Source of the DNA: Chara braunii
Lineage: Eukaryota > Plantae > Charophyceae
Direction: 5' to 3'
DNA: 64,000 bases
Assembly (NCBI GenBank): GCA_003427395.1
Contig: BFEA01000031.1
Location: forward strand, 1,570,138 to 1,634,137
Position 1 is the first letter of the stretch; each line of letters opens with the position of its first letter. This document shows, piece after piece, positions 1 through 29,000 of this stretch. Both the position numbers and the translations under genes were made by a program. The notes under the pieces are model-generated. The model ran no database searches and had not been told where the DNA came from. It worked only from the letters and a program-made list of their open reading frames with translations.

Positions 1-3000
1 GCCGGATTTTGAATCTGAGTAGCGGATTTTGAGCTATCGGAGATAGGGGCTTCGCGATATAAGAAACGAAGGCAGCCATGGCGGGAGTAAAATTCTAGTA
101 TTTCGCCTATACTCAATAGAAAGAGGTGAATGAAGATGCAAAAACGGGGTTTGGAGCCGCGATGAGTTGATTGGTGGTCTTAGTTTTGGTAGAGAGGCTT
201 TAGTTTTTGTGCTAGTGAAGGTAGGACCCGCGCTGTGAAAAATGGTTTGAGTGAGAGTCAGGTGGGAAAATTGATGAATATTTACGTATTCTAGCGAAAG
301 ATTCACTCTCGTTTTGATTTTTTTTTTTTTTTTAGTGGTGATTGCATGACCGTTCTGTTTATCATGGAAGTGCAAACATTATGTGTCTTCATCATAATCG
401 ATGCGATGGTCACGTCCTCATCCTAATCGCCATCTTCGTTTGTCTTACACTCATCTTAGTCAAGACACATAGATGCGTGCGCATGGGTTTGTGGCGGTCA
501 TCATGGCCTCTCAGAACGCTCAGACGAGGACCCTGTGCGCGTGCCTTGTGCCGTCTATAGGTGATTAGTGTGGTATTGTGTTGTGAAGAGACCAACGAGG
601 AGGTGTGTACACGCGTGAGTGAGAGGTGTGCATGGGAGAGAAAGGACGGAGAAGTCATATGTATTTGGCGATCACATTGCGGCATGTTCGGTGTTCGGTC
701 GCCCTCTAGTTTTTGCCTGCATCTATACAGCCTGCAACTCAACCGTTAATCATCGCCGGAAATGGAGGGACGGTTCTGCGTGGACCAAAAGAGTTGTGTG
801 ATTGTTGATAGTCATACTACGGCACACCAATTGGTCCGCAAAGGGTGATCCGCCCTCGAATAGATCGGCTAGTTTGTGTGCTCTCAGATGACTGATTATG
901 AGATTAGTCTCTCTCACGGGAATGGGTGGAACAAGCACGACGCGTTGCTTGATTTTGGCTTCGTTCATCGTATCACCCTTTTTGACCAGGTGTGATCAAA
1001 GAGTCTCAGAGTAGATAGGCGGGATAAGGCATGCGAAGGGGAGAGTGAGTTAACGCTTCTTGTCATGCCACGCACAAATGAATCAACCGCTAAGTTCGTA
1101 ATCCCTACTAGTTCTTACTCTATTGTTTTTTTGTCATAATTTTTGTCACCCCCGTTCAATGAGTCTATTTGATTTTGCGGTGGTATTCTTGATGTGATAT
1201 GATTAGTGACTGGTGATAATGTGAGTGAAGAACAAGAATTTGCGGAAGTTACACCCCGGGACTTACAGGTGCCTGTCTTTCATGCAATCTTCAAAATTAG
1301 TCGAGCTTCCGATTAATGACAACAAGAAGAGGGAAAAGAACTTTCTTGTGATTCTTTGTGGTGACGCAAGACTAGCCAGGTGGAAGTTTCAAGTAAACTG
1401 CGACTCAAACTATGGTTTTATCAGGTATTGCTATGGGAAAGATGCATATCGGGATGCCTGGTTGACTCGCTAATTAGCAGGGGAATTAGAGGTTTAGTTT
1501 GCATGCGTGTTGACAACATCTCTGTCGTTGTTCATGTGATTGTGAAAGCAGCGGAGCAAGTGATACACGATCAGACAAATTCTGCATAGAATGCCCATAG
1601 AGTGAGTAGCCCGAGATAATCACATACCTGATGTCATTGCTACAGACATCTGCACCGACATTATGAGAGAAGTATCAATCTGCAATTCCTTCGCTCATGC
1701 ACTCACTCAATAGTCTCGCTCCTTGTTTATTGTTGGCGTCGTCTGTTACAGACTGTTAAGGTGTAATGTGAGTTTGAACGGGTTTATGAGGTGTTTGTGT
1801 TACAAGGCTATCAAGAAAGTCCAGGGGGAATGTGTAGGCTTGAGTCTGATGGCATCACTCACCGGAGATTAATGAATACCAATGCCTGATAAAGTTTTGT
1901 CACCTTGCTTCGCATGTGTATCCGTGTGATCAGTAAGGTCGGGGGGGGGCTACCGCGTCCGTAGGGTCATGAACACTTTTGTGATCTATTGGAATTCGTG
2001 ATTAAGTTAGTGGACTCATAATTTGTTTCCGATCAAGCTATTAACTCAATTATCGTATTCACTCGTTTGTACAGTACCCATCATCCTACTTGCAAAGCCT
2101 ATGATTCTTGACTCGGAGGGATTTCTGTGGAACGAGACTAAAAGTGATATTCTAAGGGCACTCTGCCAAGAAAATTATTTTCAGCAGCCGGGTTTCTACT
2201 CCTTATGGCTCTCTTTCCTCTGAGCATCGCCTTTCATTCCTTTGTCGCTCAAATAGTTACTGAGAAAATTAGCAAGTCACGACTGATTTGCAGAGAAGCC
2301 TTTGGTTATGGCTATGTGTCTCTTTGTTGGCGCTGAGAAAACGGAGGGGTTCAGCCCTGACGTGATTAAGTGAGTACCATAGCCGCCTGTGAACAGGGCT
2401 AATAAAGAAACTCAACCCTGGAGATCTGTTTTTGAGGTTTTAGCGGGTTGGTACTTGTCTGCGTTGCTTTATGATCCAGTTGATGGAGAAAAAGAAGATA
2501 CTGCGAAGAGTTGCTTACCTCTTAGTTAAATTCCTGATCGATGGTGACTGAAGGACTTTGTTTCGCTTAACATTCAGACAAGTGTGTATGAACCCTCTCG
2601 TATCCCACGGTAATGAGCAGACATGAGATATTGAGAGGGTGGAAAAGGGGGTTTTCTGCTCTATACGTGAGACTGGGGAAAATGCTTGACCGGACCCAAA
2701 CGTTGTAAACTGACAGGATTAGCATCAGTAACTCCCTTGTGGTGCGTGTACGTATCGGTCTTACTTGACACCATGTTGTGCTGAATGCAGGTTGGGTTCA
2801 CGTAATACACTCGGGGGGTCGGCCCGTGTTAGTCATGGACCACACTTTATACCTGGATATCTTAATGCATACGAGGTCTCGAGCGAAAGCAAACTCGCGC
2901 TCGCGGTCTTAACGCCGAGTACAAAGTAACCTTGCAATCGAACCCAATGAATTGGGCTGGAGTGGATCAAATGCCTTGAGCTCCTCTAATAGGAATTAAC

Positions 3001-4259
3001 TGGATTAGACCCTGTAGTAGTATGCAGAATATGGATAAATCATACAACTCAAGGAAGTGCGTTTAATTTGTGTGTGGGCTGCTTGAGACGAAGTGCCCTG
3101 AGCAATACTGTTACGTGTGAGGAATCCTAGTGCTGGTCTTGTTTAGGCTTCAAAGTACCTTTCTACAGCTGAATGAACCGTAACCCTGACGGTACGGTGT
3201 TCGAAGCATTTCGTGCTCATTCACCGTTCAGGGTGTGACCTACTCCTAGTCAACAATGGCATCTTGAGAAAAGGAGGGGGAGGGGCCTGCATATTGTCTT
3301 AAGAGCAGACAATTATTGAGCCAGCATTAAAATTGATATGTGACTGATCCCTCTGGTCACCATCATCCGATCCGGAAAGACCCTGTCTTGTATGGACTAT
3401 TATCAGTAGTAAAAAGGCGGGCGCTATCTGAATTATTTGAGGCAAACGACTCATGGGAGCGCATGCCTTAAGTTGGAAAAGGGTCGACGTGATGCAGATT
3501 GCAGCGTGAATCAATTGCTACATGTTCCACTAACTGCCCCAACAACGAACGATTATTAGAGGGCGGATATTGTAGAGCAACCGCCCACGACCCTCTGAGT
3601 CACAGGCATCCTAACTCAAGAGGACGGACTAAGGGAAGCGAGGGAAAAACATTTTATAGCTAACTTGTGTAATAGGACGAAAGAGAGCAAACAAACGAAA
3701 AGGTTCTCGTGTGACAAGAGGAAAAATCTCAATCAAGCGTATGAGTCATCATTAAAATCAAGATTGTAAGGATTATCTATACAATTATGTTTTCCCAGTC
3801 TGTTGTCGAGATCAAGGCACGAGCTCCAGAAAGGAAGGTTTGCTTATTCTCTAGTGAATGACACCGCAAAGCATCTTGCATTTCGTCAAATAAAGTCTTG
3901 CTACCTAAGACATCCGGTGTCACGGCTCAGAATGAGCACCAGTAGGAGACACCCTATATTACAATGGGGAAGAGATGCAATGACCAAGCCACAATTGAAC
4001 TTCAATGTTAGTTCCAGTGACACCTTTGTGTTGCATGCAAGCAGAGCAAGGTCAATGGTCTGGAGCATACAAACAGCAAGCAAAAGGAAGCTATATAACC
4101 TTGGTTCTTATTGGTCGAGGACATATGGCGAGTAAACAGCCCAGACAGGGAAACCTAGTGATGTTCAGGTACAACAAAACAGTCGGAACCTAACAAGCCC
4201 CTCCCTGCTTTACTTTAACACTACGATTAGCATAACTCTTGCGTCTTCCCTTGGGAATC

Positions 4260-4505
4260 ATGCACAACGGTGATACTTTGGTGATGTCCTATGCAGATTA
4301 CCGAGATGTAGTAGAAGGATGGGAGGAAGAGGCATGTCGAGACATGGATTCTTATAGACAGATTCTACGAGAACATGCAGTCCAGATAGTCAAGGAAGAG
4401 AGGTATATAAAATATGTATTCTACTTTCATGGCTGTGACGGTAAGCTGCACAGCACAGGCTCATTCCTAGAGACAGTGGAGCAAGCTCAGATAAAACTCA
4501 AGTGA
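4260..4505 (+). CDS. Family A small ORF-B (81 aa), unknown function
   Basis: MHNGDTLVMSY...ILREHAVQIVKEERYIKYVFYFHGCDGKLHSTGSFLETVEQA aligns by eye with ORFs at 52586, 60954 and 61435. Confidence 0.65.
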   Translation: MHNGDTLVMSYADYRDVVEGWEEEACRDMDSYRQILREHAVQIVKEERYIKYVFYFHGCDGKLHSTGSFLETVEQAQIKLK

Positions 4506-4817
4506 GCACAAAGATATTGAAGTTTTTCCTGTCAACATTTCAAGCTTTAGACGGCATCCGACTATCGACAGGCTCATCAACATTCCATCTCTATGTGATC
4601 AGTGTCCAGTGGTGTATTACCCTTGTAGCATTTGGCCATTTATCATTCAGCACTCGGTCGGCATTCAAGCAGACATTCAATTATCCACCAATCGAAATTC
4701 AGTCACCTGAGTTACTCGAAACTTTCAGCCATAATCAATCCGTCAGAGATCAGTTTCGATCCGACATTTGCCTTTATCTAAAGACCTTGGATCTGTTTCA
4801 GGACCCGACATCAGCAC

Positions 4818-5456
4818 ATGAGTGCAATCCAGTCATTCCCAATTCAGCAGACGGTCTTGTCCAGCCTCAATAGGATTGCCCTTAAAGATGCTTTATCGTA
4901 CCGATATGTCAGTGCAGTCAGTTTCAGACAAGGAGACTTATTCATTCATGTGGTTCACGTCGAGTTTGCAGGCGGTACCGTTCATGACTTGAGGGCATAC
5001 TTGAGGAGGGGTAAAGAAACACATGAGTTTTTTGATTCAGACTGGGTCTCGGCAGCCAGGTATCTTAAGGAGAAAGAGAGAGAGTTTGACGAGAATGGTA
5101 CCAGGTTGATCCGTAGTTTTGGGCCCAACCTCTACACCGACTATCCTAAACCACCAGTGTCTTTCACTCTTACAAACAGCTCATGTTGGAGTGACCTGGT
5201 GGATCTAGCCAAGAGATACATCTCACCAGTGCAGATTGACTATGAGGCAGTGACAGAGCCCTCAGGGTTCCAACATCTCAGAAGAGGGATTTTCTCCAGG
5301 CCCTATCTTCCTACGCTACAGGAGGAGTTTTGTGTCATGGTTGATTTCCGTGTCATGGAACTTGGGTGGAAGTACTCAGAGCTTGCAGGCTTCAGGTGGC
5401 TCTACATTCAGATGGCCACAATCTCAGAGGGTACACAGGCATGGCTCAAAGCATGA
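4818..5456 (+). CDS. Family A ORF-C (212 aa, intact), unknown function
   Basis: Intact ATG-to-TGA ORF with collinear homologues at 53113 and 61893 (QTVL.SLN.I..KDA..Y.YV, GT.HDLR.Y, SFGP.LYTDY, LAKRYISP). Confidence 0.75.
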   Translation: MSAIQSFPIQQTVLSSLNRIALKDALSYRYVSAVSFRQGDLFIHVVHVEFAGGTVHDLRAYLRRGKETHEFFDSDWVSAARYLKEKEREFDENGTRLIRSFGPNLYTDYPKPPVSFTLTNSSCWSDLVDLAKRYISPVQIDYEAVTEPSGFQHLRRGIFSRPYLPTLQEEFCVMVDFRVMELGWKYSELAGFRWLYIQMATISEGTQAWLKA

Positions 5457-8400
5457 GAGACGCACTGCCAGATGAGAGATTGAGTATGTGACCTAGAGGG
5501 ATGAGTGAGGACTCTTGCCTAGTGCTGGTCGTGCTTGTTCATCTGTACTCCTTGAGATTACTATGAGTTCTCATTTTTCCCTCATTTCTTCTTGTCATTT
5601 GTCCGAGTCAGTCAGTCTTGCTTCTCTGCATTGCCCTTGCATGATGGTTGTTTTTTATGATGATCCATTCACAGTTCTCAAATTTAGTAAACTGACAGAA
5701 TTACGCATGCGTGACATTCCAATTTTCCGGTAATTATTATTTGCATAATTCTCTGTTGTTCTGAATCAAAATAAAAGATTCCAAAGACCGGGGACCGATG
5801 AAGATCGCAATTGAAAGGTCTCGCTCGAAGTCGGACACACACAACAGGAAGGGATTTGCTTTATTTTATTTATTTTTATTTATTGCAAACATCATACAAA
5901 ATCCTGCATGACAGCCTGTTGGCTTTCTGATCGCCTGAGGAGGCCCGACTAGAAAAAGTGCGACACCGTGCGTAAAGCACGTTACCGGCGCGACTACCTT
6001 CACAAGGGTATCCACCCTTGTTTTGCAAGTGACAGGAAATGGTCTTGAATTGGAAGTTAGGAGCGTTGCATAAGCCGCAGCCGAGTTTTCTTTCTTTGAC
6101 TAAGAGTGTGGGATTGTTTGAAGAAGTAGAGAATGTGTGGGCACGCAAGTTTGAGACGCACGTGATTTTTCTTTTTCTGGTATGAAGTGAATCGCCATTT
6201 CTGTCGAAGAGTTTCTTATTTTTTATTAAAGGTTTGATTCTAACGATCTTTTTTTATTCTTGATTGAGGAGCCTGTTTGTGACGAGCACACGCGCACAGA
6301 GGTGGGTTGCCATGGTGGGCGTCAAGTTTGACCGTCGGTGCCACGGTAGCTATTTAAGATGTTATTTGGAAAGACTTGGAGTCGGGCAACGTGCGGCACG
6401 GTAAGGTATTTTAGTTATCCGTAAAACAGGTATGGCTTTGACGTAGTGAGGGGCGTGTGCGGCGCGCAGGTTTGGTGTGAGTAGGGCAAGGCATGGGCTT
6501 GGGGCGTTTCAACGCGTCTATGTAGTGGGCGGAACCCGTTTATATTGGTTTCCGCAAGTGTCAGTGCTAGCCTTGGTCATAGCGTTATTGGTTATGTTGG
6601 TAGATTGCTACTATGGAGGTTTGGGGATCGAGGGCGGTATCCGACAACGAGGGAGCAGCGGTGTAGTTTGAAGGAACCGAGGGGTTGAGGGCTTGACAAG
6701 GCTATCCCCCTCTGTTTTATTGACGCCCCCGGGGTTGGGACCGATCAGTGGGACGAGGGGGTGCCGGAGGTCCCTCCCCCTCCTTCTCTTCAAGGGGTTT
6801 TTCTATTTTTATTTTATTTTATTTTATTTTAAACTTCTTTGTTCTGTCTCATTTTTCTTAGGGACCACTACCAGTTCCGGTACCGGGTCTGGGGCTGGTG
6901 TCGAAACCAATTGACTTAGCTCAATTGGTGCGCCTCAGAACTGTTGAAATACAGGTCTCAGTATGAATTCCATTGAAACCAGAAGAGTAAGATGCTGCAA
7001 ATATGAATTACTTATAACCGATCGGTCCCGTGGGCCTGACCATGGGAGTGCTACCAGTCATGGAACCGGGAAGAACCAGCAGACTCGTACAGTTGGTATA
7101 CCCATGAACTGTAAAAAATACAGACCGGAGTTTACCACAAATGTCATTTTTTTTATTATTATTTTTTTTAATTTATTTATTTTCGTTCACAAGAGTTCTT
7201 GCACAATTTGTGAATAGCGCCGTGTGACCAGCAAAGTACTAAATTGCCATTGTTGCAAATAGCTAGGGTTTGTCCCATCTAAAAAGGTACAGCAGCGTGT
7301 GACCTGAACCATGCACAAAACCTTGAATTGACCTGTCCCAAATCTGCATATTTTGCAGATTTGGGATCGCAGGGTGAGCATTCCGTTGAGACCAGAAAGA
7401 TGGTGGACCTTGCCTGGGCACAATGGGGCGGGTGAACCAGGGCGGAGGCCGCAGGCTGCAGCCGCGGTCACATAGAGCCCCTTCCGACTTCCATTTTCAA
7501 AAATTCTCATTTGAATAACTACCACAAAGATCTGTGTCGGGATCCGCTCCGCCTAGGCTCACGCTACAGGCTTCGAAACAGGGCGCGGCCAGGGGGAGGC
7601 TACGTCTGCTGCCCACGATCCGCTGTGAGAAGTGGATATGAGCATGCCTGTTGGGGTGGTAGTAGGGGAGCTACGCCTGGGCACAGCCGACCAAAGGAAC
7701 TCTGGTGGGGGCTGCAACAATGTTAGCAAGTACCAACTAGCCTAGCTAGGTTGGCACACTCACGGACTGTTGAAATGTAGATCAGAGTTCGATCCGGAGA
7801 AGGGGTCTACCTAGGTGTTGCTACGACCCCATCGTTTAGGCATCTCACAAAGTCCAATTTTTATTTTTAATTTTCTTATTTTTTCTCAGCCCCTCTTCTC
7901 CTTTTAGGAGCTGCACTGCATTTTTTTCTCTCGGCTGGATGGACCTTCTGCCTAGATTTGGGCAGATTCGTTCAATCAGGGGCAAATGGTAGTGGATGCT
8001 TCCTTGAGTGAATCAGGGGCAAATGGTAGTGGATGCTTCCTTGAGTGAGGCACAAGTAAGCTATGTGGACATGCTATTCTAAGCTATATAGGACAGCGAG
8101 GTCCGGCGACCAGGACTTTACTTCCATTTAGGTACTGAAGACTGTTGGATCGTGCGCTATCATCCGGGCATACTTTGGCTGGCAGGAGAGGCTCGTGGAG
8201 TAGCGGGCTACGAGGAAGAAGAAGGGGAGGAGACGATGAGGGAGAGGATCATGACGAACGGGAAAGGAGTGAGGTACCGGCTTAGAGGCAGGGCGAATCC
8301 AAGTACGAAGTTAAAATTTTAAATTAGATAATAAATGGTGAGATAGAAGGAGAAATGAGTGCGCGGAGGAGTCGAGAAGAGAAAAGAGAAGGTGAACAAG

Positions 8401-9412
8401 AAGAAAAAAAAAAAAGATCATATCTCGCCCAATTCCTAATGAAATTGAGCAAACAAAGGTGTTAATCGGAGGTTCTTAGACATTCCGGATCAAATGGCCA
8501 TGCCAGATTTTATATCTGAGCAACATATTTTGCGCTATCAGGGATAAAGGCTGCGCGACATAAGGACGAATGCGGTTATGGCAGGGACGAAAATCTTATA
8601 TCCCATCCCATACTCAATGAAATCGGGCAGGGAAAGAAGAGATTCCAGGGTTTTTAGATAGGGCAAATCCGTTGGAAGAGTTCGTTTTCATGATCAGTTA
8701 GTAGAATGGGAGAAAATGGAAAAACGGGGTGTGTGACAGTTGCGAAGAGAAGAATATGGTGTGGGAGAAAATGGTGTATCTCTCCCATTTATGAGTTAGT
8801 TTGGGCGAGGGAAGAGTCTACATTGGGGTTTTTGGGTATGATGAACGTAATGGTAGCATCGGATATCGCATCTGAGCAGCAAGTCGGCCAGGATCAGCAA
8901 TAAAGGCTGCGTGATTTGCAAGCGGGGACGAGTGGGAGATGGCAAGGCGGGGAGTGAATGTTTCAAGTATTACCGGTGGAAAGTTCATTTTCTCCACAGC
9001 GCTGCCTACCGTGTTCGCAGTTGTGGTGTTACTCGTCATATTTGTTGGTCTCAACCCCAATGCTTCGTTCTATAGTCTTGCTGCTAACAGTACGCATCTC
9101 TATCAAGACAGTGCTTATATGAAGATCCATAATCATGGGTGGTGACGAACGAGAGTGCAAGAGAGAAAGGAGCGCAGGGAGAAGGAAAGAGTAAAGGAGT
9201 CGAGCTATATACCTGGTCGGAGGCGAGCGGAACTGCGGATAACAAAGCAATACATCTCTCCATATTCTGGCGGAAGAGTTATTCTCTACACTTGGTGAGT
9301 CGTAGGATTGTTTCGTGTTGGTGCTTGCGTGTGTGGGGCTCGGTCTATCCGCGCTTATCTTGAATTACCAGAATCTGACCAAGGTCGCAGCAAGATCATG
9401 TGAGAACGGGAT

Positions 9413-9458
<46 letters not shown>

Positions 9459-10384
9459 CAGACAGACAGAGAAGGTACTTATCAAGAAAGGTAGGCAAGT
9501 TGGTGGATGCATCTTTCCACAATCGGAGGAAAGATTCATTCTCATAGCAGCAGGCGCACAAATCAAACAATGAGTAAGTACCTGCGCTGAGCAGAGAGGA
9601 ATGAATTTTGTCACGGTTATGATTAGATACACTAGATGAGGTAGTTAGAAAGAGAGAGAAAAGGACTCACCTGCTCGTCGCAATTCCAAAAGGGCTCACT
9701 TTCGTGATTACCAATGCCCGTGGTGACCACGTTTTTTTATGGGTAGTGAAGTGAGGTCACTGATAGTGCATGTAGGCTTATCATGACGGACACCATCTGA
9801 AAATGTTTACTACCTAGCTGACAAAGTGTCGCTTGATCCAGGGGAGGGACGTGCTGCTACTGTATTGCTGTTGAGGTACAGTGTGGGTTGCAGCAACATA
9901 CTTGACTGCTGATTTTTTTGGGCAACTGCTGGTCCATTCTGAATTGGCGTTGTGCTTCACTGCGCACCGCGAATTGATTGACTCATTCACACTGGCGGGG
10001 TTTTAGTTATAGCTACTGCGCACAACTGCGGTGCGCACTCCTCCCGCATTGCACCACAGTCGTCGGGGTGCCACAGGGATACGCCGAACTCTGCTAGGAG
10101 AGAAGTGACCCCCTCACTCCTCCCGCATGCATCCCTACTGAGCCTGCCCCTCCTGGAGCCGCCCCCCCCCCTGGCCTCAACAACCCCAAGGGGAGGCACA
10201 CGCTCAACCGTTACGGGAACCCAGGATGTATGGTTGGGAATTCAGGATCAGGTAGGCACCCTGATGGGTGGATCCCCGGTGCAGACCTGCAAAGCCCTAT
10301 GTACATCCGTGCCCCTGGAAGCATGCGCGCTCAGTGTGTGAGTGGTAGTGCGTCAACCTAACGCCTTGCCGACGGCATATGCAC

Positions 10385-10464
10385 GAGGTTGCGGATTTGA
10401 ACCTGCAACCTCAAACCACAATGTGCATTTCCAACCGGTGCCCTAACCACTGGGTCATCCGCCA
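10385..10464 (-). mobile_element. tRNA-derived SINE head or tRNA-like pseudogene
   Basis: On the minus strand, A-box-like TGACCCAGTGG (10457-10447) and B-box GGTTCAAATCC (10403-10393), the latter inside an 8-bp stem GAGGTTGC/GCAACCTC. No clean cloverleaf. Confidence 0.55.
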
Positions 10465-12010
10465 CTCACGTATTGTTGGATTTCACCTGCATTGTGAAAT
10501 AGAGCATTGGGGGTGTGCTCTATCCAAGCACGACCTTCCTAAGCTGTTTTTCCTGGCAGTGTTGTCATACTATATGGCAGTTGTTGTTGCTGATGCCAAC
10601 AAGATGCATTGTCAATTCAGAGGCTGCTAGACTGTGTAGTACTAAGCCACAAGTAGAGGAAGAAGCGGACTGAATAGCGAGAGGGAGAAAAGTTGGCAAC
10701 GGGAAGAGGATTGAATCAGAGAAAACAGAAAACGTACCCACATTTGGGCGCACCGTTCGCCTATCCCGACTTGCTGTACTATGATTCAACCTCTACTACC
10801 TTCAGTATGGGCAGCAGGTGGCTTGTTGGACTGTTGCTATTTTCCAAGTCAGAATAACAGTTGTTTTGACTGGCATGCTGTGTGGGTTACTAGCACTACT
10901 GCTAGGGGCTCGAAATACTGTTGTTGCCAATCCAGACACGTTTGCTACTAGTTTCCTCCGTGGCGGTTATCCTTGTTGTTGAACTGAGACTGTTGTCGCT
11001 CCTGAGCCTTGACTACTGATGTAACTTGAACAGCAGTAGCTACTACTTACCTACAGACCACTGATGATGAGACTGAGGAACTGCAGTCGAGATTGTACCA
11101 TAACTGAGTATTTCGCTAAGTACTATTGTAGCTAGGCTTCAAAATGTTGTTGCAGTGCAGTTACTGTGGTTGTTAGTTCACACTTGGCTGTTGCTGCTCA
11201 AACTCGGGCCACAGGTTTCACTCGCCCAACCAGAATGGTAAAAAGCAGTTAACGCCATAGCATCAGGCTGCTAATGCTAGGTGTCGCTAGGCTACTGATG
11301 CGATGTCGCGACACTGCAATTGAGTTTTCATGTGTGGTCATTTGCATTTAGTAGAAGCATAGCATTGTGTAGTTGCAAATGTTATTGTATTTTTGTTGTG
11401 CATTGCTGTGTATTATCATAGTATAGCGCTTGCAGAGCTTTTTGTTGGGCATGGTTTGATCACTGTACCCGGCTGCTGCTCGTGCGACCATTTTGCTCAA
11501 TAACGCTGCATTATCGTCTGCACTTCGAATAGAGCACGGGGATGGGCACTTCGAAAAACGAGTGTCCAGAGCTGTGTAGCTGCGGGTTGGTCAGGAGAGA
11601 CACATCATAGCTTTAGAAGGGTGATCAGACTTTGAAGAGGGATCACTGTTGCGGCTTGGAAGGCTGTCAGGTGTTTGTTATGCTGCATCTTGATCGAAGA
11701 TCTGAATTAAGTTTCACTGCGTTTATTGGCCACCATTGCGGGGCCCTCAGGCGCATGAAGATTTCAAGGTCCTCTCCTGCGAGTTGAGTTCGTCCCTCTC
11801 CTGTACCTCGAGGGTCTAAAACCCCTCCTTATGCCCTTCTTATTTTAAGTTTAGTCTGTGGTTACGAGAGGAAGGCGGCAGGCGGGGTTGCAACCCATAG
11901 GACCGCATCAAGACTCTGTGGGGAGTCTGCCCACCGATTGCGGGAGCTCCGACGGAACTCAGGAGGAGTTATGGAGGCAAGGAACCAAGAGGTAATTCTT
12001 CGACTCCTTC

Positions 12011-12016
12011 TATAAA
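12011..12016 (+). promoter_or_regulatory. Candidate TATA box upstream of the hairpin array
   Basis: CTATAAACC about 260 bp upstream of the first hairpin. Motif only. Confidence 0.35.
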
Positions 12017-12269
12017 CCCCAGCTAAAACCCTTATGAATACATCTCTTTATGGATGCTTGATTATACTACATCCATCCCTATGCACTTTGTGTTTGACTT
12101 TTCTGAACTAAGTCAGAATTAACAAAAGAAATGGATGCACAAACTTCAATTTTCTTCTTCTTTTGTTTGTTTGAAGTTAGATTGTGAAAGGGATGAACTG
12201 GGGGAAGGTGGGAGAAAGGTAGTTTTGCTTGCAATGATTGGGTCTCCTTTGTTTATTTTTATTTCCTCT

Positions 12270-12962
12270 GCAGCCAAGCAATGTGGCTTCGGTCAGGCAT
12301 GATTGTCGTATTGTTTGTGTTTCTGACAGTCAGACAATGTGACTTTAGTCAGGTCTGATTGTCATACCCCTGTAAGTTGTTAACTAAGCAACCATTCAAG
12401 TGACTTCAGTCAGACCTGGTTGTCGTGTTTATGGTAATTTGTCTGTTGAAAGGGTTTTAAGAGTTGGGTAATGTGGTTTTAGTCAGATTCAACTACTTGC
12501 TTCTTTATGAGGGAGGTTTGGACAGAGGACTGAGTAATGTGGCTTCGGTTTGGCTTAGTCTGAAGTCACTCGCATAAAAAGAAACCTATAAATATTATTT
12601 TTTATATGCATAAGTATTATACTTTTTACAGAACAAGCTAGTGAGATAATGTGGCTTCAGTTTGGTTTAACTATAGCTTATCACAGAAAGGGAAAGAAAA
12701 TATTAAATTAAGAATACAACAAATGTATTTTGAGACAGACTGAGCAAGGTGGTTTCGGTTTGGCCCAATCTTAGTCTTCAAAAGATTAAATAGATTGAGA
12801 GAGTTATTATAAATCTGGATATTAAACATTTAGCAGAGGTAGACAATATGGCTTCGGTTTGGTCTAGCTAACTGCCCAGAGAAGAAACAAGTAGGAGTGC
12901 CCTCTATTTTGTTTATACAAAGGTAAAAGGTTAAACAATGTGGCTTGGGTTTGGCTTAACCT
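12270..12962 (+). repeat. Array of 9 interspaced structured repeats (17-nt core AATGTGRCTTCRGTYWG closed by variable stems)
   Basis: Cores start at 12280, 12336, 12397, 12470, 12536, 12648, 12746, 12845 and 12937. Each is flanked by complementary arms. Confidence 0.9.
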
Positions 12963-13167
12963 CCTTATGCCATATGTAAGTTGGGGTATCGGGGTTTTAC
13001 TCAACTGAGAGATGATGAACTACTTGTGTGAAAACAACTTGGGAGGAACTGGTGAGAATACTTACTCATCGTGGTATGGACTTACATAAGGCTGAGTGTG
13101 AGCTCTACTTGTTCTGAGTCGTAGCTTTGATAGGTAGTGCTTTAGATGCTCACAATGTGCTGGAGCT

Positions 13168-13650
13168 GTAGGAGTTAGTTCAATTCCTACATTTTCTGAG
13201 TTAACTTGATTTTACATAGTTCAATTATCGCATTTTCTGGGATCATTTATTTTACTTAGCTTTGTACAGATTTTGGAAAGACACTTCTCCTACGGGAAGC
13301 GATGCTGAAATTTCTGCAAATTCAAGGAGTTAGTTAGAATTTTTGTTTTTCACAAAGTTTGATTTTTTTGACTTCATATATGACTTAGTACGAATCTTGG
13401 AATCGTACCTTTTTAAAAGAGATGCTGCCCATATGTTTACTAATTCAGGGAGTTAGATAAAACTTGACCTTGTGAAGTCAGGATCACTTTTAGATTTTAT
13501 GTTTAGTCTTATATAAATTCTGCAAAAATATTTTTCCTACGGGAAGCGCTGTCAAAATTTCCTGAAATATAGAGGAGTTATAATATTTTAGAACCATTGA
13601 AAGTTTGACAGTCTGCCCTCGCGTAGGGGAGATACTGCCGAAAATTTTTA
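13168..13650. repeat. Degenerate ~120-155-bp repeats with GGAGTTA(G) and CCTACGGGAAGCG motifs
   Basis: GGAGTTA near 13170, 13327, 13449 and 13574. CCTACGGGAAGCG near 13289 and 13536. Confidence 0.55.
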
Positions 13651-14135
13651 ATATTTCAAATAAGTATCAGATGTGAGGTAGGGAGATAAGATCTATTTTA
13701 TAAGTCACTCAAGCATAGTTTGGTCAGTGGTCTGTGTTGTGTTGAAGGTCATTCTTATTTCAAATTGGTTCAAGGCTTGATTAACTTATAGTTGATCCTA
13801 CGAGGATCATCTTATGTTATCTTTTGATAACAGGTCGGTTTCCAGTTCAACTCTAATTCATTCTCACTACTCAACCTAAGGCTTTAGCCCCTGTGGGTTG
13901 AAATGTTTCTTGGGGTTTTACCAAAACTTTTATGAAATGGTCATTTAAAAGACTGAGTGTTTTTTCTTTGGGAGATTGGACAAAGGTTGAGATTTGTGTG
14001 GCTAAAGCAAAGGGTGTGAGTACAGAGAGTGGTTGAAGTTGACCCCGTGAAGTGTGTGTTTTGTTGATGTTGGATCGGTTGATGTGATTGCAGATATGTC
14101 TTGTGAGTTGAAGTCCAGATTTGATTTTGTATACG

Positions 14136-14137
<2 letters not shown>

Positions 14138-14217
<80 letters not shown>
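14138..14217. repeat. (AT)n microsatellite
   Basis: About 40 AT units, read directly. Confidence 0.98.
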
Positions 14218-14219
<2 letters not shown>

Positions 14220-15559
14220 GAGAGTGATCGTCGCGTATTTTATAACCTTTTGTATTTATTTTTCCGAGTCTTATGTCCACATGGTCATTGTTGTCATGCG
14301 TAATGATTAAATAGTTATGTATCAAAAGAGAGGTCAAATCCCTCTTTTCCTTTTGCTTCTTAGAATTACTACAATTGGACGTTGAAGTCCGTGACAACCG
14401 TCAAAGTCAAACCCCTTGATTTCTCTCTAGGCCCTGGATGATGGAACCCGCCTCCAAGGCCACGAGAGTCGACTACCACCATAGGCCGGAACCTGTATAC
14501 CACCCACTCTCCACAGTGTGCAAACGAGGGTGTGGTTCTCAACCGTCTTAGTGGTTGTTTAGCATCGAGAGATTGACCCCTCAAGGCGCGTGTCAGCCAA
14601 CACTTGAGTGTCGAAGGTGACCATCGAGCGCTCTGAGGGCCTTGCAATTATGGGTACTACATAGTACGCCTTCACCGCGACCGCTTGCGTATTCATGCAT
14701 TGCTAGTCGATATGATTAAGACTGGTGCTGCTGCGATATTTATTCGGAGTCTCACGTGCGATACTCGTCTGATCCAATTAGTAAAAGTTATGGGTCTAGC
14801 GTGGAAAAAGAGACTAGCGTGATTTACATATGGAGTACGATTTTAGTTTTTGTGAGACGTGTCGCATGGTTAGATTCGACTGTCCTAGTCGACCAAGGTA
14901 GGATCACATTCGAGAGATCAACGCCTCGGGCGACGGTTCGTGCACGGGTCCGGTTCAGGTGTTAACCGCGCGTACCCCCTATGCTACAGCAAACGAGAAA
15001 CGCCTTCGGTCGGACCACCTCTGCGATTGCATATGAAAAGCCTTCGCATGTGGTTCCGTAGTTTGGCAGGGATACGCCCACCTAAGGGATCGTGACAGCT
15101 CCTGCAGGTGGAGGTAAGTTGTACCTCGCGTGGCTCAATCCTTTCATAGGGGTTCACGAGAGGTATAGCTGGCGCACTTGGCCGGAGCGGCAACGCTCTA
15201 CGACGAAGTCCTGCAAAATTCTGCGTCACGCGGCCGGGAGGGTCCCCTCTACGAGACCGATGCCCTCAACAACGCCTAGTAGGAGGACGAAGAGGACGAG
15301 GATCATGAGAGACGCGAGGGGAAGAAGGGGAGGGTGCACCAACGTCTCTAGGATCGACCAACGATGAGCTCAAGCCCGAGTGCTCATAAAGAATAGCAAG
15401 CAGCGCGAAGGTAGAATTGCGAGCGGGTATGCCTACTATTGTAGGAGGATCAGAGGGACGGGAGATCGCCTCTAGGTGGTTGCGGTGCTGGATGTCGAAA
15501 CGAGGGGGTCAGGCTGAGGGCGAAACTGCTGAGCAAAGTGGCGCTGGAGGGCGTCAGCG

Positions 15560-17482
15560 TAGGGGCCGGTGGATGGGGTGTGACCAAGTAGGCGACAACG
15601 GGTACATATACCTCGTGTACGGAAGTCCTCACTCTCCATGATAGTCAATCGGGCTCGAGGGAAGACGTAGCCCGATGGGAGGGGCTATTGTGTGGCCGAT
15701 GAGCTGGTCCTCGATAAGGAGGACTGGCGTTGCCTGAGGAAAGCAAAGAACACGGACGAGGTGCTCGTCCTGGTCGGGATCGTCACCATCCACAGGAGAC
15801 TGGGGGTCATGTCCCTGGTCCGGGTCACTATGGGATCCATCCGAACCAGTACCCTCCTAAGCGCTCGACGACTCGCGGAGCATAGTCTAGACACGGCAGA
15901 AGAAGGCGCGTCCAGGAACTTGGCGAGGGTCGCGGAGAGACGTGGAGAACTGTTGGGGGCGAGATGTGTCAGGGTCAGACTTGGCAACGGGAGGTGTAGC
16001 ACCAGGTTCAGATGTGGAACCCACAAGAGTTGCATAGGTGAGCTGGATGGTCCTGGCAATGTTGAAGGCCTCAGGGAGGATGTGGATTTTGTATGCCAAC
16101 ATCTGAAGCTGGAAGGGTTGGGGTAACCTGGCACAGAAACGCTGGACCATAGCATCGTCGACTATGAGGGAGGGGGGAATCTGGGCATGAACAAGGTGGA
16201 ATATCGTGATGTACGACTCTAAAGCATTGTTGCCACCAAGTCATCCGATCTCAGCGACCCGTGTGATTGGGTCACGGGTAGGCGTCGGGCGAGAGAAGTA
16301 CTGCTGGAGAAAATCACGAAACTCTGCATACGTCATACTCGCATGAACGCCCTGCTGAGCACGAAGGGCGAGAAAGTCGCGCCAAGTGGAAGTCGCTCGA
16401 GCTGTGAAGCGAGCTGACATCTTCGTAGGCCACAGGTCCATGTTTACACCATGGTACCAAAGGTGCTCCTCGGTTGTGGTGATCCATCCCAAGAGTTCAG
16501 AGGCCTTGCCATCGAACTGGGGGAGTCTGTTAGGGCGGTATCGAGGTACATATGGCGGCGACTGATAATGAGGAGGGAGGGGGAGGGCACACTGTGACAA
16601 GAGGACATTGGAACTAGGGGCACCCGCACGGGTACTAAATAAGGCAGGAAGTTGAGGCAAAGGGCCGTGAGACATCGTGGTGGCCGATGGAGGAAGAGTA
16701 AAGTGCATCGCAGTGGCCTGTGTCTGATGCTGCTGGTAGACGAAAGCGGCAGCATGTTGTGCCGCGAGGTGGGGAGGCAAGGGTTGACCTCCTTGGAGCT
16801 GGCGGATGTGATCGTGCACCATGGCAAGTTGGCTTTGGAGCTCAACATTTTGTGTCTTGGGTGTCATAGGGGGTGGGCGGGGAGGTAAAGAAGTGGGGTG
16901 TGGTGAGGTAGGTGTCGTGGAAACTAAAATTGAGGAGGTGGCGGGACACGATGCCATGGGTCATGAGGAGGGAAGTGTGGAGGTGGAAACTTGGGAGGAA
17001 GAGATGGCTGCAGAAGAAGGGTGGGTCAGGGGAGAAGGCATACCACTCGTGGAAGAGACAAGCGTGTAGATGACGCCAGCCGAAGAAGGAGAGGAAATAG
17101 GCATAGATGTTGATGACGCGGGTGGGAGGGAGGACTGTGGGATACCAGATTCGGGAAAGGGGAGGTGTGATCCACTAGGAGGATGTGTGTGGGAAGAGGA
17201 GGGGGGGGGAAGAGAGGAGGGAGGTGTGGTGGCACGCGACTCCATCTGTAACATCCAGTCTGACAAAGTATCGAAGTTGGTTTGCATGGCCGTGAATTTG
17301 GCCTCGAATGTGGCCCGCATGTGCTGGAGGATGGCTAGTACAGGGTCTGACTGGGTGGCGGGGCCCGAACTGGCGGCCGCAGGGGTGAGAAGCTCCGCCG
17401 AGTCAGGCATGGTGTCACGAGCTAGGAACGCAAGGCCTTCGTTCATGGACCGGGAGGGACTTGCGAACTCAACACTTTGCAT
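15560..17482 (-). pseudogene. gag: Ty3/Gypsy-type gag, disrupted by stops and a frameshift
   Basis: In-frame pieces 17482-16961, 16957-16241 and 16150-15887. Retrotransposon-gag-like RLPQFDGKASELLGWI...W...TYAEFRDFLQQYF. Degenerate zinc knuckle CTRCRLLGHTPSTG at 15606-15565 in another frame. Confidence 0.8.
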
Positions 17483-20400
17483 ATAGTCAAGGGATGAAGA
17501 TGATGAAGAGGGGGAACTTGGATGGGGGGGATGCTCAGTGGCAGCGATCGACGTGTCAAAGCGAGTAAGTCGGTGTGCGGCACGGGCATCTCGGGTGCGA
17601 TTTTGGAGTACACGTTGCTGGTTGTCTTGGGGAGCCAGATTGGCATGCAGAAATGGGGGTAAGAAAGGAATGCGTGTAGAAATGGGCTTTAGCGAACTTC
17701 CGGAATTAAATCAAGACAATTCAAAATCGGATTAAGGGAGGAAGGGAAAAATTTTCAATTGGAGCCAGGAAAATAAAAAGAAATTTTCACAAAACGACAT
17801 GGGGCATAAAGGAAAGCATGTGTAAGACAATCACGAAGTCAAAATAAAATTCCAAAATTAATTGGACGTAAATTCGAAATTTAACTAGGCTACCAGCCGG
17901 GCCGTCCGGGTCCCGGGTGGCCAGCCCGTGCAAGGACCAAGGAAGGTCCCAGAAAAAAAAAACAAAAAAAAAACAAAAATCCAAAAAATCAAAAAAAAAA
18001 CTATGTTATGCAGAAAACTAAACTGAACAACTTTTGCCTTAGGGTCACATTGAAATTCTTCACCAACTTTAAAATAAATAATAAATTTTAAAAATATTGT
18101 TTTATTTTTAGTTTTTTGGCCCGGGCGGGCAAGTGACCCCGGGCCACTCTGGTGGCCTAAGAATTTAAAAAAAATTGAAGCAAAATTCAAGAAATTTAAA
18201 AAATATTCAGAAAAAAATATATAAAAGTCCGGGGAGATGATAGAAGAGGTAGAGATGAATGCATAAAAGAATTTTAAATTAAAATAGAAAATTCCTTGGC
18301 GTGTTTTTGGAATTAAAAGAATTCTGAAAGCAATTTGAAATAAAAATTGAAGACTAGTACCTAATTGAAGGATTTACGATGAAATCGCAGAAAGAGTTTA
18401 ATGGTCAAGTAAATTGAATTGGGAGGAATTTCAAAATTATTCAAATGAAAAGAATAAATTGTATCACATGTTGTAAAATTATGAAGAATTTCAAAGAAAT
18501 TTTTAAAAAACTCCAAAATAATTTCAAAAAAAATTGCGGAATTTTAAAATTTTACGAGGGATACAAAGTAGAAGTACAGTGGATGTCGAGAGGATTAAAT
18601 TTAGTAAATTCTGAAATGTATTTCACTAATTTCTGAATTAAAATCAAATTTTAAACTAATTTACGAAAGAATTTGATATAATAGGTCGGCGTTCCGTGCA
18701 GCAGGATGAACGACATTGTCAGACAAGCACAAAAAGAGGATATATGCGTTAGGAATTTTAGATAATGCGACCAATTGGATGGGATGGGAGAGGACGAAAG
18801 GGAAAATGGAGAGGAAAAAAATGAGATGTTTTAGAGAGATCGGTGGGAGGAAGGGAGGGAATTAGTAAGAGGTAGAGAAATTCATAATACCACACTCCCA
18901 GTCGGTCGGGAGTAATCAAGGTCCTTCCTCCTAGCCAAGGAAGGTCTTCAATCAACCCCTAAAGGGTCTTATCGATCGTTCCCCGGCCTCAGTGGAACGG
19001 CAAGGTCGCCGGATTAAATGCGCGAACTGATGATGACGGACCACTGCAATGATAACGTCGGCAATGGCGGCAATGACAAGGACGATGATGATGATGATGA
19101 TGATGATGATGCTGATGTTGATGATGATGATGGCGGCCACGAACCAATTATCCGTGTGGTAACTTTTTCGACCCCTCTAGCTTGAAGTCTCGAAACGCTA
19201 AAGAATCGGTAGGCCAAACTCTCACATATTGTATTCGTAGTGGAGATCAAAATCAAATGAGTTTTTGCCCTCGTGCGCCAAACGAGATTTATTTTCTCGT
19301 TGCGCTCATCGTAGGACACCTGCATCATCTTCTAACAGATGTGCCACTCCCGCCAAGGCCCAGGTGTGCATGTGTGCGCAGGCGGAAGGTAATGGGGGAG
19401 CAACGTGGTGAGAGGTGGGGAGGCCGATCGCGCAGGGAAATTGGGGAGTAAGGGGGGTGACGCAGTAGGGAGGAGCGGGAATGGGAATCGGGTCGAGGGG
19501 GATCGGGGTGAAAAGTAGGGAATGGTGGGGGGAAATCGCGTGGGAGGGGGGAACGGGTTGGGCGCTTGGGGGGTCGGAATCGGGGGCAGGGGGTGTGGGG
19601 GAAATCGAGGATAATTGGGATCAGGGGGCGAAGGTGAGGGAAAGTCGGAGGGGAGTTGGGGGAGACGCGGGGGAATCGGGATTGAGGACGACTGGGGAAG
19701 GGGAGGGAATTCGGGATCTGGCAGAGGGAGACGGAGCAGTGGTGCACGTGTGCGCGCAGGGGGAGGGGGTTCACGGGGGATAGGGAGTTGCGGAATCGGG
19801 AGGGCAGCAGAAGCGGGAGTGGAGCGGCATGAGCGAAGAGGGAGTGGAGTCGGTGCGTGGGGGAGTCACGTGGGCGGGGAGCGGAAGCGGGGTCAGGATC
19901 GGGGAGGCGGGGCGCAGTTAGGGGGGGGGAAGGTTGGGATTAGGGTGATTGGATTGAAGAGGTGGGGCAGGGAGCGGAAGCGGAATTGGGTGGGGGGAGG
20001 TGCGGATGCGGGGAGAGGAGGAAGGGTAGCAGGGTCGGGAGTCGGGAAGGAGGATGGGGAGGAGCGGGGTTAGAGATGTGAAGGGGGATTTGGGATCGGG
20101 ATCGAGATCAGAGGGTCGGGGCGCAGTTGGGGAAGGAGGAGGGGAGCGGAATTAGAGCGGGGAAAGAAACAGTCGGGACTGGGGTTGGCCTCGGAATGGG
20201 AAGCGGGCAAAGTCGGGATCGGGATCGGGATCGGGATCAGGATCGGCAGAGGGGGAGGAGGTGGGCGGGGAGAAGTTGGGTTGGGATCGAGAGATCGTGG
20301 TGGGAGAAGATCGGGGTCGGGGCGGAGGGGGAAGGAGTAGCGATGGGGAGGGAAAAAACGGAAAAGGGCGGGAAGGGGGGGGAATCAGGATTAGAAGAGC

Positions 20401-21211
20401 GATTGAGGGAAGAGGGGGAGGAGGGTGGGAGAGAGCACATGCACGTTCATGTGTTCGGGGAGGTAGTAGGGGGTGTGGGATCGGTCGGGATCAGGGCCGC
20501 GAGGTAGGGATGACGTGGCAGGCGGATCAGAAGGCAGGGTAGAGGGGGAGGAATGTGCGCACGTACACGCAGCAAGGCAAGCGATAGGAGGGAAGGGGGG
20601 GGGAAGAGAAGGTTGAGGGGTGGGCAGCAGTCGAGGAGATGAGGAAATGGCTGCAGAGTGGGAGGGGGGAAAGAGGGATTGAGATCGGAGTTGGGGAGGG
20701 GGGGGGCGAGTCGGTGTAAGATAAGAGAAGTTGGGATTGGAGGGGGAAGAGGAGAGGGGGGGGAAAGGATGTGCTGACGGACGGGAAGTGGGCAGTCCAC
20801 GTGTCAATGACCCTTCCGCAACTTCACCTATGGGGACCTTGATACGACTTCTCCTTCCTCCAATGATAAGGCTCGATGGACTTCTCACAGCACTGCCAAC
20901 TTCGAACTGCCGATGTCACCGCAGTCCAGACACGTCACCGAGCCGTTCAATCGGTAGGAGCAACAGGCAGTGGACGTGTGTTAGTGCAAGCAGTACCATC
21001 AGGTTGACGTCGGCAGCCGGTAGGAGAGCCGCAGCAGCTGGAGCAGTGTGTCTTGGGGATCGTCAAGGAGAAAGGCGCCAGCTTGGAAAAAAAATGTACC
21101 TGGTCACGTTAACAGACCAGGTGCGGCTGCAGGAACAAGCTCGGAGATGGCTATCCGTGATGTAGGATAGCGAAAGGGGGAAGGGGGGAGGGAGCAGAGG
21201 TTTGACACTCC

Positions 21212-21223
21212 GCTCCGATACCA
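21212..21223 (-). promoter_or_regulatory. Primer-binding site for initiator tRNA-Met, next to a 5' LTR end
   Basis: Minus strand reads ...GTTACA-T-TGGTATCGGAGC against the canonical TGGTATCAGAGC. The LTR edge is at 21225, upstream of gag on the same strand. Confidence 0.8.
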
Positions 21224-21260
21224 ATGTAACGCACGTGTAGAAGGTGCGTGCAGAGATGGT

Positions 21261-26005: not shown

Positions 26006-29000
26006 ATGGAAATTGTGGAATCCTCAGATACGATTGGCGGGAGCGTGAATGTTGCTGCCTCTGCACGCGGACGTTGGATATCATCAGACGGTGACGAGAT
26101 CGATCAGGTAGCTATGGCCATCAACAGTGGCATGGATCCATCGCCGCCCTCGCCTCCCTCCCGCTCCTCTTCCCTCGCTGTCTCTGCCGATTGGGCGATG
26201 ACGAGTCTTGCTACTATCTCCTCTCTCCTGACACGAATGTCGGAGACTCATGGTAAAGTGTTGGTTCACCGGTTCTCGTGCAAGCTGCTGAGCGACTATG
26301 TTCAACGTCTGTTGCCTCTGGTTCGTGAGCTGGCCGCGGCGGACCCATTCGCCACAGCCAAATACACCTCTGAACTTGCAGGTCTCCAGTCGAGCCTCCA
26401 TTCGGCAATGGTGTTAGTTGAGGGTTGCACTCATATCTTCTACGTGTGGCGTCTTGTCAAGGAGCGTGAACCCTTCCCCGAGTTCAAGACGATCAGCAGG
26501 AGCATTGATCGCTCAATCGGACGGTCAGGGGCGCTTCTCGCGGTGCAAACGGTGTCAGTGACGACACGTCAGGGGATCGAGGACCTGCGGCGCGCATTGA
26601 AGATCGTACGGTATGGGCTCGATGAGATGGATAGGCGGTTGCTTGAGGCGTACAGCGAAACTCCACACCACCAGACGACCGTTATGGCTACGTGGCGCCA
26701 GCGGTGGCAGCATGCCAGGCGCAACCCCCGTGGGGCCACCATAGCTCCTCAGCCTTGGGCAAGATCAATCAGGGGGGTAATGGGGAGGGTTGGCTGGGCA
26801 GGACCGGATCCTCGAAGCCGTAGATCGCTGATGATGCAGCCGGGAATAAGAGTGTTTGGGCAAGACGAAGAAGTAGAGGAGGCGAGAGAAGAGGAGGTGG
26901 CACGAGATGCGGAGGAGGAGGAGGAGGATGAGGAGGAAGATGTGGAAGAGGAGGAAGCGGCGGCTGAAGAGGAAGACGACGATGCGGACGAACAAGGGCA
27001 CGGAGATGAAGCGGGCGGCGGCGACGAAGAAGACGGAGGAGAGCGCGGGTGGGGCGAAGAAGAGCGGTTTGTGAACAGATTGATGCAGTTCATGGCACGG
27101 ATGGAAAAGACGAATACGAGCTACGTGCTGCGTCTCGAATGGGAGAAGGAGGCGCAGGCTTTGTCCTCGGCTATGGCGGAAGCGAGGATGGGCGGGCATC
27201 AAGACGACGCCGAACAGATAGCGAAGCTGGTGCTGGCAATCGGAGTCGTGCGCGATAGGCGTGCAAGGGAGCGATCCCGACGACGGATCCGATCTAACGA
27301 GAACGTAGGTCTCACATCCAACGGTCTATATTCCGTCGATTTCATTCCCAATGCCGGGGCCGTGACTTCGGGCGGGGTTTCCACGGCGGCAGCAGCAGCA
27401 GCAGCCGCCGCTGTCGGCGCTGAGGTCGTTGACCAGAGGACGACGAGGAGGAGGACGAGGAGGTGGAGGATTCTCAGTAGCGATGATGCAAATGATTTGA
27501 ATAGAGAAGGTTGGGAGGGAGGAGGATCAGACGGGGAAGAGGAGGAAGAAGTCGAGGAGGAGGAGGAGGAGGAGGAAGAAGAAGAAGACGGAGACGAAGA
27601 GGAAGGCGAAGAAGAAGAGGAGGAAGGGGAAGAAGAGGAAGAAGAAGAGGAAGAAGAAGAAGCAGAAGGAGAAGAAGAAGCCGCAATCACGTCAACGTCT
27701 GGCGGAGCTATGGCAGGTTCGCTTAGTCGTCTGGCCGACGATCCGAGTTGGGACCTCGATTACCTACCTTCTCCTCCCAAAGAGTATCTTTGTCCAATTA
27801 CGTTAGAATTAATGAGAGACCCCGTTGTTTTGGAGACGGGTATTTCGTACGATCGAAGGGCTATAGAGGAGCATTTCCGCTGTGGATACCGTACCTGTCC
27901 TGTCACCAATCTTCCTCTCAGCTCCTGCAAGCCCTTTCCAAATTTTGGCCTTCGAACGGTTATTCATAATTGGCATGCCGCTGCCATCACTAGTAATAAC
28001 CTGGGGTTACCCCAGACTGCCTCTCCTCCGCCGTCCGTGCCTGTTCCTAATCACCCCCCTTGTGCTCCTCCTCCTCCTACACGTAATAGTGCAAATCCGA
28101 TTACTCTCCCTTGCCCGCCTGCTACTCCTTCCCCTCTGGCTAGTCCTATTTGTCCGCCTTCTCCCTCTCCGCCTTCTCCTTCACCTAACGCTCCCCCTTC
28201 TCCCTGTCCGACTTCTCCTCCTCCTAATTCTTCCCCTTCTCCCTCTCCGTCTTCTCCTTCACCTAAGTCTCCCCTTCCCCTTTCTCCTCCGTCTCCGACC
28301 TTTCCTTCACCCACATCCCCTCCGTCTGCATCTCCTGCGCGCACTTCTCCCTCACCTGAGTCTTCTCCGCTTACGTCTCCCCCGTCTACTTCTTCTCCGC
28401 CTCGCCGTGCTTCTTCCCGTGCTCGGTGCGATTCCCCCCTTGCAACTGTTTCCCAATCACTTCCTTCGTCGTTGTCTTTTTCCGCCTCCGCCGCCGCTTC
28501 CGCCCGTGCAACTACGTTTCGTGTCAGTTCTTCCCTGTCGGATATGCGCAATGTCAAGCCAGTTAGTAATACGAGCAGGCTGCTGTCTGTCGAGGTGTCC
28601 TCGTCCTCTCGTGCGGTTCGCATGCGCGATGGCGCGGAAGGGCGCGGAGGCGCGGAAGTGGAGTCGGCACCTTCCGAACGATCGGCATCTGGCAATGCCT
28701 TGCGCTTTCGGGGGGAAAGCGATCGGTTTGTCGCTCCGTCGGCTGGGGCGTACTCGGCCTCCTCCGCGAGTCAAGGGGGGGGAGAAATGCTCTGCAATCA
28801 TTGCCGTCAGCGATCGCTCGATTCACTGACACGGAGGTCAGCGTGGGCACGGGAGCAGGGGTGTTCCATATCAGCAGAGAGGTCTGCATTTCCAGGACGT
28901 GTTGAGAGGGCTGCATTTCCAGGACGTGTTGATAACGTTCCCTCCTCGACGACCGTAATCGTGGATGCGTCGAGGGCAAGAGCTGGTCCTGGGTTAATTC

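Follow-up and report, generated by a model that had tools for sequence, protein, structure and literature searches.

The window, the whole 64-kb stretch of DNA that was analysed, carries nine copies of a short core, each enclosed by arms of its own, and this raises the question whether they form a structured signal, on which strand such a signal would be read and what kind of element carries it. The surroundings are eukaryotic and repeat-rich, with rRNA and U6 fragments, a U-box ORF and a Ty3-capsid ORF. The nine-hairpin array is real. Nine cores at an irregular spacing of 56-112 nt had been proposed by a sequence-only reading, and all of them were found in the places claimed, exclusively on the + strand and spanning 12280-12953. 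The units are the following:

12272-12304, + strand: unit 1, arms around the core 12280-12296, with cUUCGg and inner GGC/GUC
12324-12364, + strand: unit 2, 12-bp arms, core 12336-12352
12388-12423, + strand: unit 3, core from 12397/8, 1 base short in the present copy
12462-12494, + strand: unit 4, core 12470-12486
12527-12561, + strand: unit 5, core 12536-12552, first of five GTTTG-type heads
12639-12673, + strand: unit 6, core 12648-12664
12737-12771, + strand: unit 7, core 12746-12762
12837-12869, + strand: unit 8, core 12845-12861
12927-12963, + strand: unit 9, core 12937-12953

The core consensus, AATGTGGCTTCGGT(CA/TT)G, is a non-palindromic 17-mer. Six of the nine cores lie within 2 mismatches of AATGTGGCTTCGGTTTG, where shuffled sequence would be expected to give 0.01. 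From core to core the distances are 56, 61, 73, 66, 112, 98, 99 and 92 nt. A covariance model of the nine units, a check that had been proposed earlier, was run on the 64-kb window; it found these nine, which match by construction, and no tenth unit. Tandem Repeats Finder (TRF) reported nothing across the array, and cmscan against Rfam returned nothing near gathering score for the array and the sequence on either side of it, all scores being far too low and the best E values 0.2-0.74, in agreement with the view that this is neither a known Rfam family nor an ordinary satellite.

The spacers are 21-77 nt long, an almost fourfold range. They had been called unrelated, and pairwise comparison revealed no significant likeness (28 pairs, lowest p 0.065); older duplications are nevertheless visible. 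Units 5-6 with their spacer align to units 7-8 with theirs (64% over 157 nt) and unit 1 aligns to unit 3 (72% over 54 nt), thus the array appears to have grown by duplication.

The arms differ between units yet pair. Over the first 8 arm positions, 52 of 72 own-unit pairs are Watson-Crick (WC) when the core of unit 3 is taken as 17 nt (54 of 72 when it is taken as 16 nt), against a mean of 34.0 for arms swapped between units, and only 2 of 362,880 swap permutations equalled the own-unit pairing. All 8 arm columns change on both sides. The arm covariation score was 0.634 versus 0.427 and was reached by none of 500 shuffles; a count of double-change columns (8 versus 5.9) was not significant when taken alone (43 of 500 shuffles). 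Pairing amounted to 88% in the true register and to 11-47% in slid registers, and the point at which the stem begins relative to the common head is constant in all nine units. The inner helix of 3-4 bp varies on one side only, its pairs being kept through G-U. When folding was compared with shuffled sequences, unit 2 was the sole clear case (z -4.0), the other eight units ranging from z -1.93 to +0.81, and the array as a whole gave z -0.96 on the + strand and -2.05 on the - strand. A search for long-range pairing of the cores inside the element gave nothing notable.

Other copies were judged from difference tables of mapped public DNA contigs; mapping on the array only took in 344 and 442 contigs from two contig sets. 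We examined 41 majority differences, namely the best 40 of 244 and place 12963 from a wider mapping, and as these are the best supported ones they are mainly private to the present copy. The majority letters describe the state of the other copies, which differs from covariation between copies, and they may include contigs of neighbouring similar units (0 and 5 contigs fit two places). Cores account for ten of the 41 differences, arms for 14 and spacers for 17. In the cores all ten changes go toward the common head letter, and UUCG loops result in units 3, 4 (where most other copies have this loop) and 9 (UUGG in the present copy). Each of the 13 arm pairs touched by majority differences is paired in most other copies, 12 as WC and 1 as G-U, with a chance of 4e-6 to 3e-4 for 12 one-sided arm changes. 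With majority letters, WC pairs in the first 8 arm positions rise from 54 to 64 of 72, and G-U is left in 5 of 72.

Unit by unit, the other copies mostly show G (12342) and C (12346) in unit 2, G-C at the two broken arm pairs of unit 3, C-G instead of G/A at arm position 5 of unit 6, and WC pairs at the two A-C arm mismatches of unit 7. An insertion of T behind 12399 in unit 3 occurs in 2-4 contigs per run. The present copy is thereby shown to have decayed from a cleaner family state. Conservation of the arms in structure over sequence, as claimed before, is supported both by the covariation between units and by this cleaner state of the other genomic copies. Contig depth was greater over units than over spacers (Spearman 0.47 and 0.52, 29 bins); the spacers are present in other copies and were inherited with the element. 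To judge from joints and inserted letters, some copies may have a further unit ahead of unit 1, and copies appear to differ in unit number.

To describe the carrier, the two public DNA contig sets were mapped on 11000-14100 at 80% likeness (13,885 and 14,055 contigs). The landmarks are:

10568-11700, - strand: low-copy flank with several paralogs, about 86% alike, Q/S/T-rich
11726-11738, - strand: CA-A-TGGTGGCCAA, resembling an LTR end plus primer-binding site (PBS), at the edge of family-wide similarity
11726-12040, no strand assigned: block common to most copies
12011-12016, + strand: TATAAA, just beyond the block common to most copies
14004-14014, + strand: purine tract AAAGCAAAGGG directly before TG, polypurine-tract (PPT) candidate of a plus-strand element
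14015-14396, + strand: candidate 3' LTR, TGTGAG...CGTGACA, with (TA)n at 14138-14216

Summed contig depth, which is not copy number (a single-copy contig gives about 10), was 5e4-3e5 over 11728-12039, up to 1e5 at 13184-13599 and 14016-14100, and 350-1500 over the array. The carrier is by these depths a high-copy dispersed repeat. Because the depth over the array is far below that of the flanks, the array is taken to be common to a subfamily at 80% likeness, and most subfamilies would be without an array or have a diverged one. The array thus sits in a variable non-coding part of a very high-copy repeat.

Family-wide similarity ends at 11726, where 285 and 301 contigs have unrelated loose ends. 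At the other side depth goes up tenfold in the bin from 14016, a joint lies at 13919-14012, the conserved block starts at 14015, and CGTGACA ends the candidate LTR at 14396. The edges of the repeat, at 11726 and about 14396, resemble those of LTR retrotransposons, and the carrier is likely to be one. The candidate LTR edges 11737 and 14015 are not among the loose-end matches listed, no second LTR was found in the window, and the end pairs examined had no target-site duplication. A TATAAA had been pointed out upstream of the array; it is present at 12011, outside the family-wide block, and its role as promoter is putative. The left flank (10568-11700) has weak 3-nt periodicity and is possibly a decayed minus-strand ORF, either gag or an antisense ORF; searches of 5970-11724 for gag and pol, which included the left flank read through stops, gave no Pfam or homolog match.

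The PBS-like site on the - strand and the PPT-like site on the + strand point to opposite orientations of the element. The TGGTGGCCAA site is a putative tRNA-Ile match and a candidate PBS. CA-N0-3-TGG has a background of 3.6 per kb per strand; at 11738-11726 the site argues for a minus-strand element, in which a single long LTR would span 11737-14396 and have 14015-14396 as its far end. A search for a self-priming PBS yielded nothing, its best match being 9/12. The AAAGCAAAGGG tract counts for little on its own, since the background of such tracts is 0.44 per kb per strand. The orientation can be read both ways, which leaves room for a role in antisense RNA or at the DNA level. We consider it somewhat better than an even chance that the element lies on the + strand, with the array in a long region between pol and the 3' LTR, before the 14004-14014 tract and the LTR at 14015-14396.

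The strand of the array RNA had been deduced from the non-WC positions of the arms, said to be G-U on the + strand. This argument does not hold. In the first 8 arm positions of the present copy there are 8 G-U versus 5 A-C pairs; at four of these G-U positions, and at four A-C positions as well, the majority of other copies show WC pairs, so that decay produced both kinds. The + strand is favoured on other grounds, namely the fixed G-U of the inner helix, which would be A-C on the - strand, the cUUCGg heads, and cUACGg hairpins nearby. Hairpins of the cUNCGg type with at least 3 bp number 5 on the + and 0 on the - strand in 11737-14396, the remaining 61 kb having 7 and 4. Folding energy does not tell the strands apart, as the units' difference between plus and minus (-2.3) does not stand out from background (-1.39, sd 2.57). 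Taken together, a + strand RNA seems to us distinctly probable. A second series of hairpins was seen at 13286-13629 on the + strand, in subrepeats of about 120 nt starting at 13286, 13408, 13533 and 13616; it has four hairpin-like motifs, two of them with cUACGg and a U-G pair on the + strand, and sits in blocks common to far more copies than the nine-unit array.

Poly(A) RNA was followed in three runs (X5, X6 and X7; 6-13% of each run). Over the array depth was 0 in X5 and at most 4.6 in X6, and X7 gave one read. From a presumed RNA run, three contigs matched the array, at <90%. If the library is of the usual stranded kind, array reads of X6 lean to the + strand (summed depth 11.2 versus 3.5), and over 13080-14100 its reads lean to the other strand (276 versus 128). 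The RNA signal is background-level transcription of many copies. No pile-up of RNA ends at the units was seen in X5-X7, libraries unable to show small RNAs. On the block 11728-12039, X5 reads are one-sided (first mate on the - strand, about 35 versus 2) and X6 reads are balanced; X5 has almost no reads elsewhere on the element.

We give about an even chance to the array being a multivalent protein-docking signal on the RNA of the element, serving Gag packaging or export. A fixed asymmetric head on stems that merely pair has the anatomy of a protein-binding RNA site. Each stem would only need to exist, so as to present a head consisting of the AAUG/G internal loop and a mini-hairpin of 3-4 bp with a cUUCGg cap, and the head would be read by sequence. 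Nine repeats would provide avidity for the reader protein, and by this avidity the RNA could be chosen by the Gag/nucleocapsid of the element during assembly or by an export adaptor. A scaffold of this kind had been proposed before, and it is the best reading because the carrier is a high-copy retroelement-like repeat. No binding partner, gag or pol linked to the present copy was found. More broadly, LTR retrotransposons might mark their own RNA by a family-specific multivalent code, a fixed-head and free-stem array read by Gag or an accessory protein, and the present array would then be one instance of a general, undescribed class; with a minus-strand element the code would lie on antisense RNA or first-strand cDNA. 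We put this forward tentatively, at clearly less than an even chance. RNA self-selection by LTR retrotransposons is described in passages of PMC11381356 as poorly defined even for Ty3, and passages of PMC11963269 give no known function for repeat arrays of plant elements. With its natural compensatory stems and nine-fold head, the array offers a ready 35-nt substrate for probing and pull-down, controls built in.

Several other explanations have to be weighed against a docking signal. With a minus-strand element, all of 11737-14396 would be a single long 5' LTR with PBS and gag behind it, and an antisense transcript of this LTR, or else single-stranded first-strand cDNA, would be where the hairpins work. 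CA-A-TGGTGGCCAA lies exactly at the edge of family-wide similarity, a similarly built element with CA-T-TGGTATC is found at 21226, ORF-like minus-strand DNA begins about 35 nt beyond the PBS-like site, and the lean of the X6 reads over 13080-14100 fits as well. We also counted in its favour that supplement file 3 of PMC6317226 lists tRNA-Ile priming for 9% of the Tekay elements and for 7% of those of Chlamyvir, and that antisense LTR promoters are known, according to passages of PMC7264820. Nevertheless, this explanation seems unlikely to us: no junction cluster at 11737 is among the matches listed, no gag was recognised in the left flank, the tRNA match is putative, and we found no precedent for selection on nine antisense hairpins. 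Somewhat less likely still, the cores could be binding sites in double-stranded DNA, an enhancer or insulator array within an LTR whose arms form cruciforms or nothing. A fixed non-palindromic 17-mer occurring nine times in an LTR-like element would suit such sites, as would the arms of the other copies, which are nearly pure WC and hence strand-neutral; Sirevirus LTRs, according to passages of PMC2829016, have 8-32 repeated motifs near the promoter with a proposed enhancer or insulator role. A duplex, however, has no need of unit-specific complementary arms, the inner helix retains G-U and UUCG, and folding with DNA parameters is weak, the units summing to -35.7 kcal/mol compared to -89.6 kcal/mol as RNA. 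A DNA enhancer array would be of specialist interest only.

The arms might also be a neutral by-product of template switching, which repairs short quasi-palindromes in a duplicated, drifting repeat. Such an origin would agree with the near-perfect arms of the family, with growth of the array by duplication and with the small amount of RNA. It is made improbable by the same stem register around the same head in 9/9 units, by G-U persisting in the arms (5/72) and in the inner helix, by units being better conserved than spacers, and by the spacers, which are without such palindromes at a fixed place. Finally, each unit could be a processing site, either a self-cleaving ribozyme or a nuclease site, at which a precursor is cut into unit RNAs in a CRISPR-like or retrozyme-like manner. 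A fixed internal loop on a variable stem is the look of small ribozymes and of Cas6-type sites, and retroelements bearing ribozymes reportedly exist. We regard this as very improbable, as no Rfam ribozyme or CRISPR repeat matched, the spacers of 21-77 nt are inherited and match nothing, no nuclease gene was found in the parts scanned, and nine cuts in its own RNA would harm an LTR element.

Among known systems, CRISPR arrays resemble the present one in having short structured repeats between dissimilar spacers. Unlike theirs, the arms here vary by unit, the spacers differ widely in length and are inherited with a eukaryotic mobile element, and no cas gene was found in 1-11724 and 14400-19100, the remainder of the window being scanned in part. 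Near-identical repeats and spacers of even length are thus not what the array has. A BLAST of the spacers for targets, as had been proposed, gave no blastn match among 50,697 records of phages and 72,556 of plasmids. The idea of a CRISPR-like precursor therefore finds no footing, as the spacers are variable and inherited, match no phage or plasmid, and lie among units at which RNA ends do not pile up in libraries where small RNAs are not visible. The core pattern occurred 0 times in viral contigs (2 scans) and 0 times in prokaryote genomes. Fourteen metagenome loci were set aside as chance: each has a single core whose arms do not pair consistently, and lacks another core within 3 mismatches. 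In a comparison by eye, the cores did not fit those of K-turns, SECIS elements, hammerheads or twister-type ribozymes.

Dispersed packaging signals of ssRNA viruses are, like the array, many degenerate stem-loops with a common loop motif and joint avidity, whereas the present units are clustered in 0.7 kb of non-coding DNA, and no case from an LTR retrotransposon was found in the literature searched. SL-C of the RSV Psi signal is likewise a small stem-loop with a UNCG-type loop in the non-coding RNA of a reverse-transcribing element, where stem structure counts for more than sequence. It differs in that it occurs once, inside a compact signal close to the 5' end; the nine units of the array are spread out and have an AAUG/G internal loop besides, and their binding is putative. 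According to passages of PMC5035970, the UGCG tetraloop of RSV Psi is bound by NC and is dispensable for Gag selectivity in vitro.

In the motif and palindrome region of Sirevirus LTRs, passages of PMC2829016 and PMC4728375 describe many copies of a short motif with divergent flanks, predicted hairpins and variable copy number, much as seen here. There, the conserved motif is itself a GC-rich palindrome with a CGG-CCG core and is read as DNA regulation; in the present array the asymmetric loop is conserved, the palindromic arms covary and the core is non-palindromic. In Retand elements, tandem arrays lie in the stretch from pol to the 3' LTR and adjoin antisense ORFs (passages of PMC11963269 and PMC7264820). 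Family-specific repeats, a long non-coding region, variable copy number and adjoining antisense ORFs are points of likeness in what these passages describe, but the Retand arrays are head-to-tail and were found by Tandem Repeats Finder, which is blank on the present array. The words 'hairpin' and 'secondary structure' are absent from PMC11963269. In the open literature, as distinct from subscription papers and repeat libraries, no published account of such an array was found, and the core sequence searched as text gave a sole match, which concerns an unrelated subject.

Several features of the surroundings were recorded in addition. Another repeat family is present in three copies, 67-78% alike, at 4236-5968, about 52560-54431 and about 61540-63038. 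It has two + strand ORFs, which in the first copy measure 89 and 213 aa and gave no Pfam match, the ORF at 4815-5453 also giving no homolog. Behind these ORFs come a purine tract and then about 470 bp of LTR-like end, TG...GCGACA, a build shared with the 14004-14396 region. Left of its third copy, at 59317-59535, lie three copies of a non-coding 81-nt repeat, 81-83% alike. To the right of the carrier, 15475-21226 is a gypsy-like element on the minus strand; its PBS at 21225 is of the tRNA-Met type, and its long leader contains LSU and SSU rRNA fragments (19175-19356 and 20813-20972). By position, the broken Ty3-capsid ORF at about 15900-16400 (E 6e-4) belongs to this element, and a homolog search with its gag piece was blank. 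A decayed tRNA-like sequence, perhaps a SINE, was noticed by eye at 10370-10450 on the - strand, where ARAGORN reports no tRNA. Further downstream, a 1354-aa ORF at 26006-30070 has a U-box and a weak MCAfunc match followed by long acidic and proline-rich repeats, and a U6 snRNA-like sequence (54 bits) lies at 38659-38767 on the - strand.
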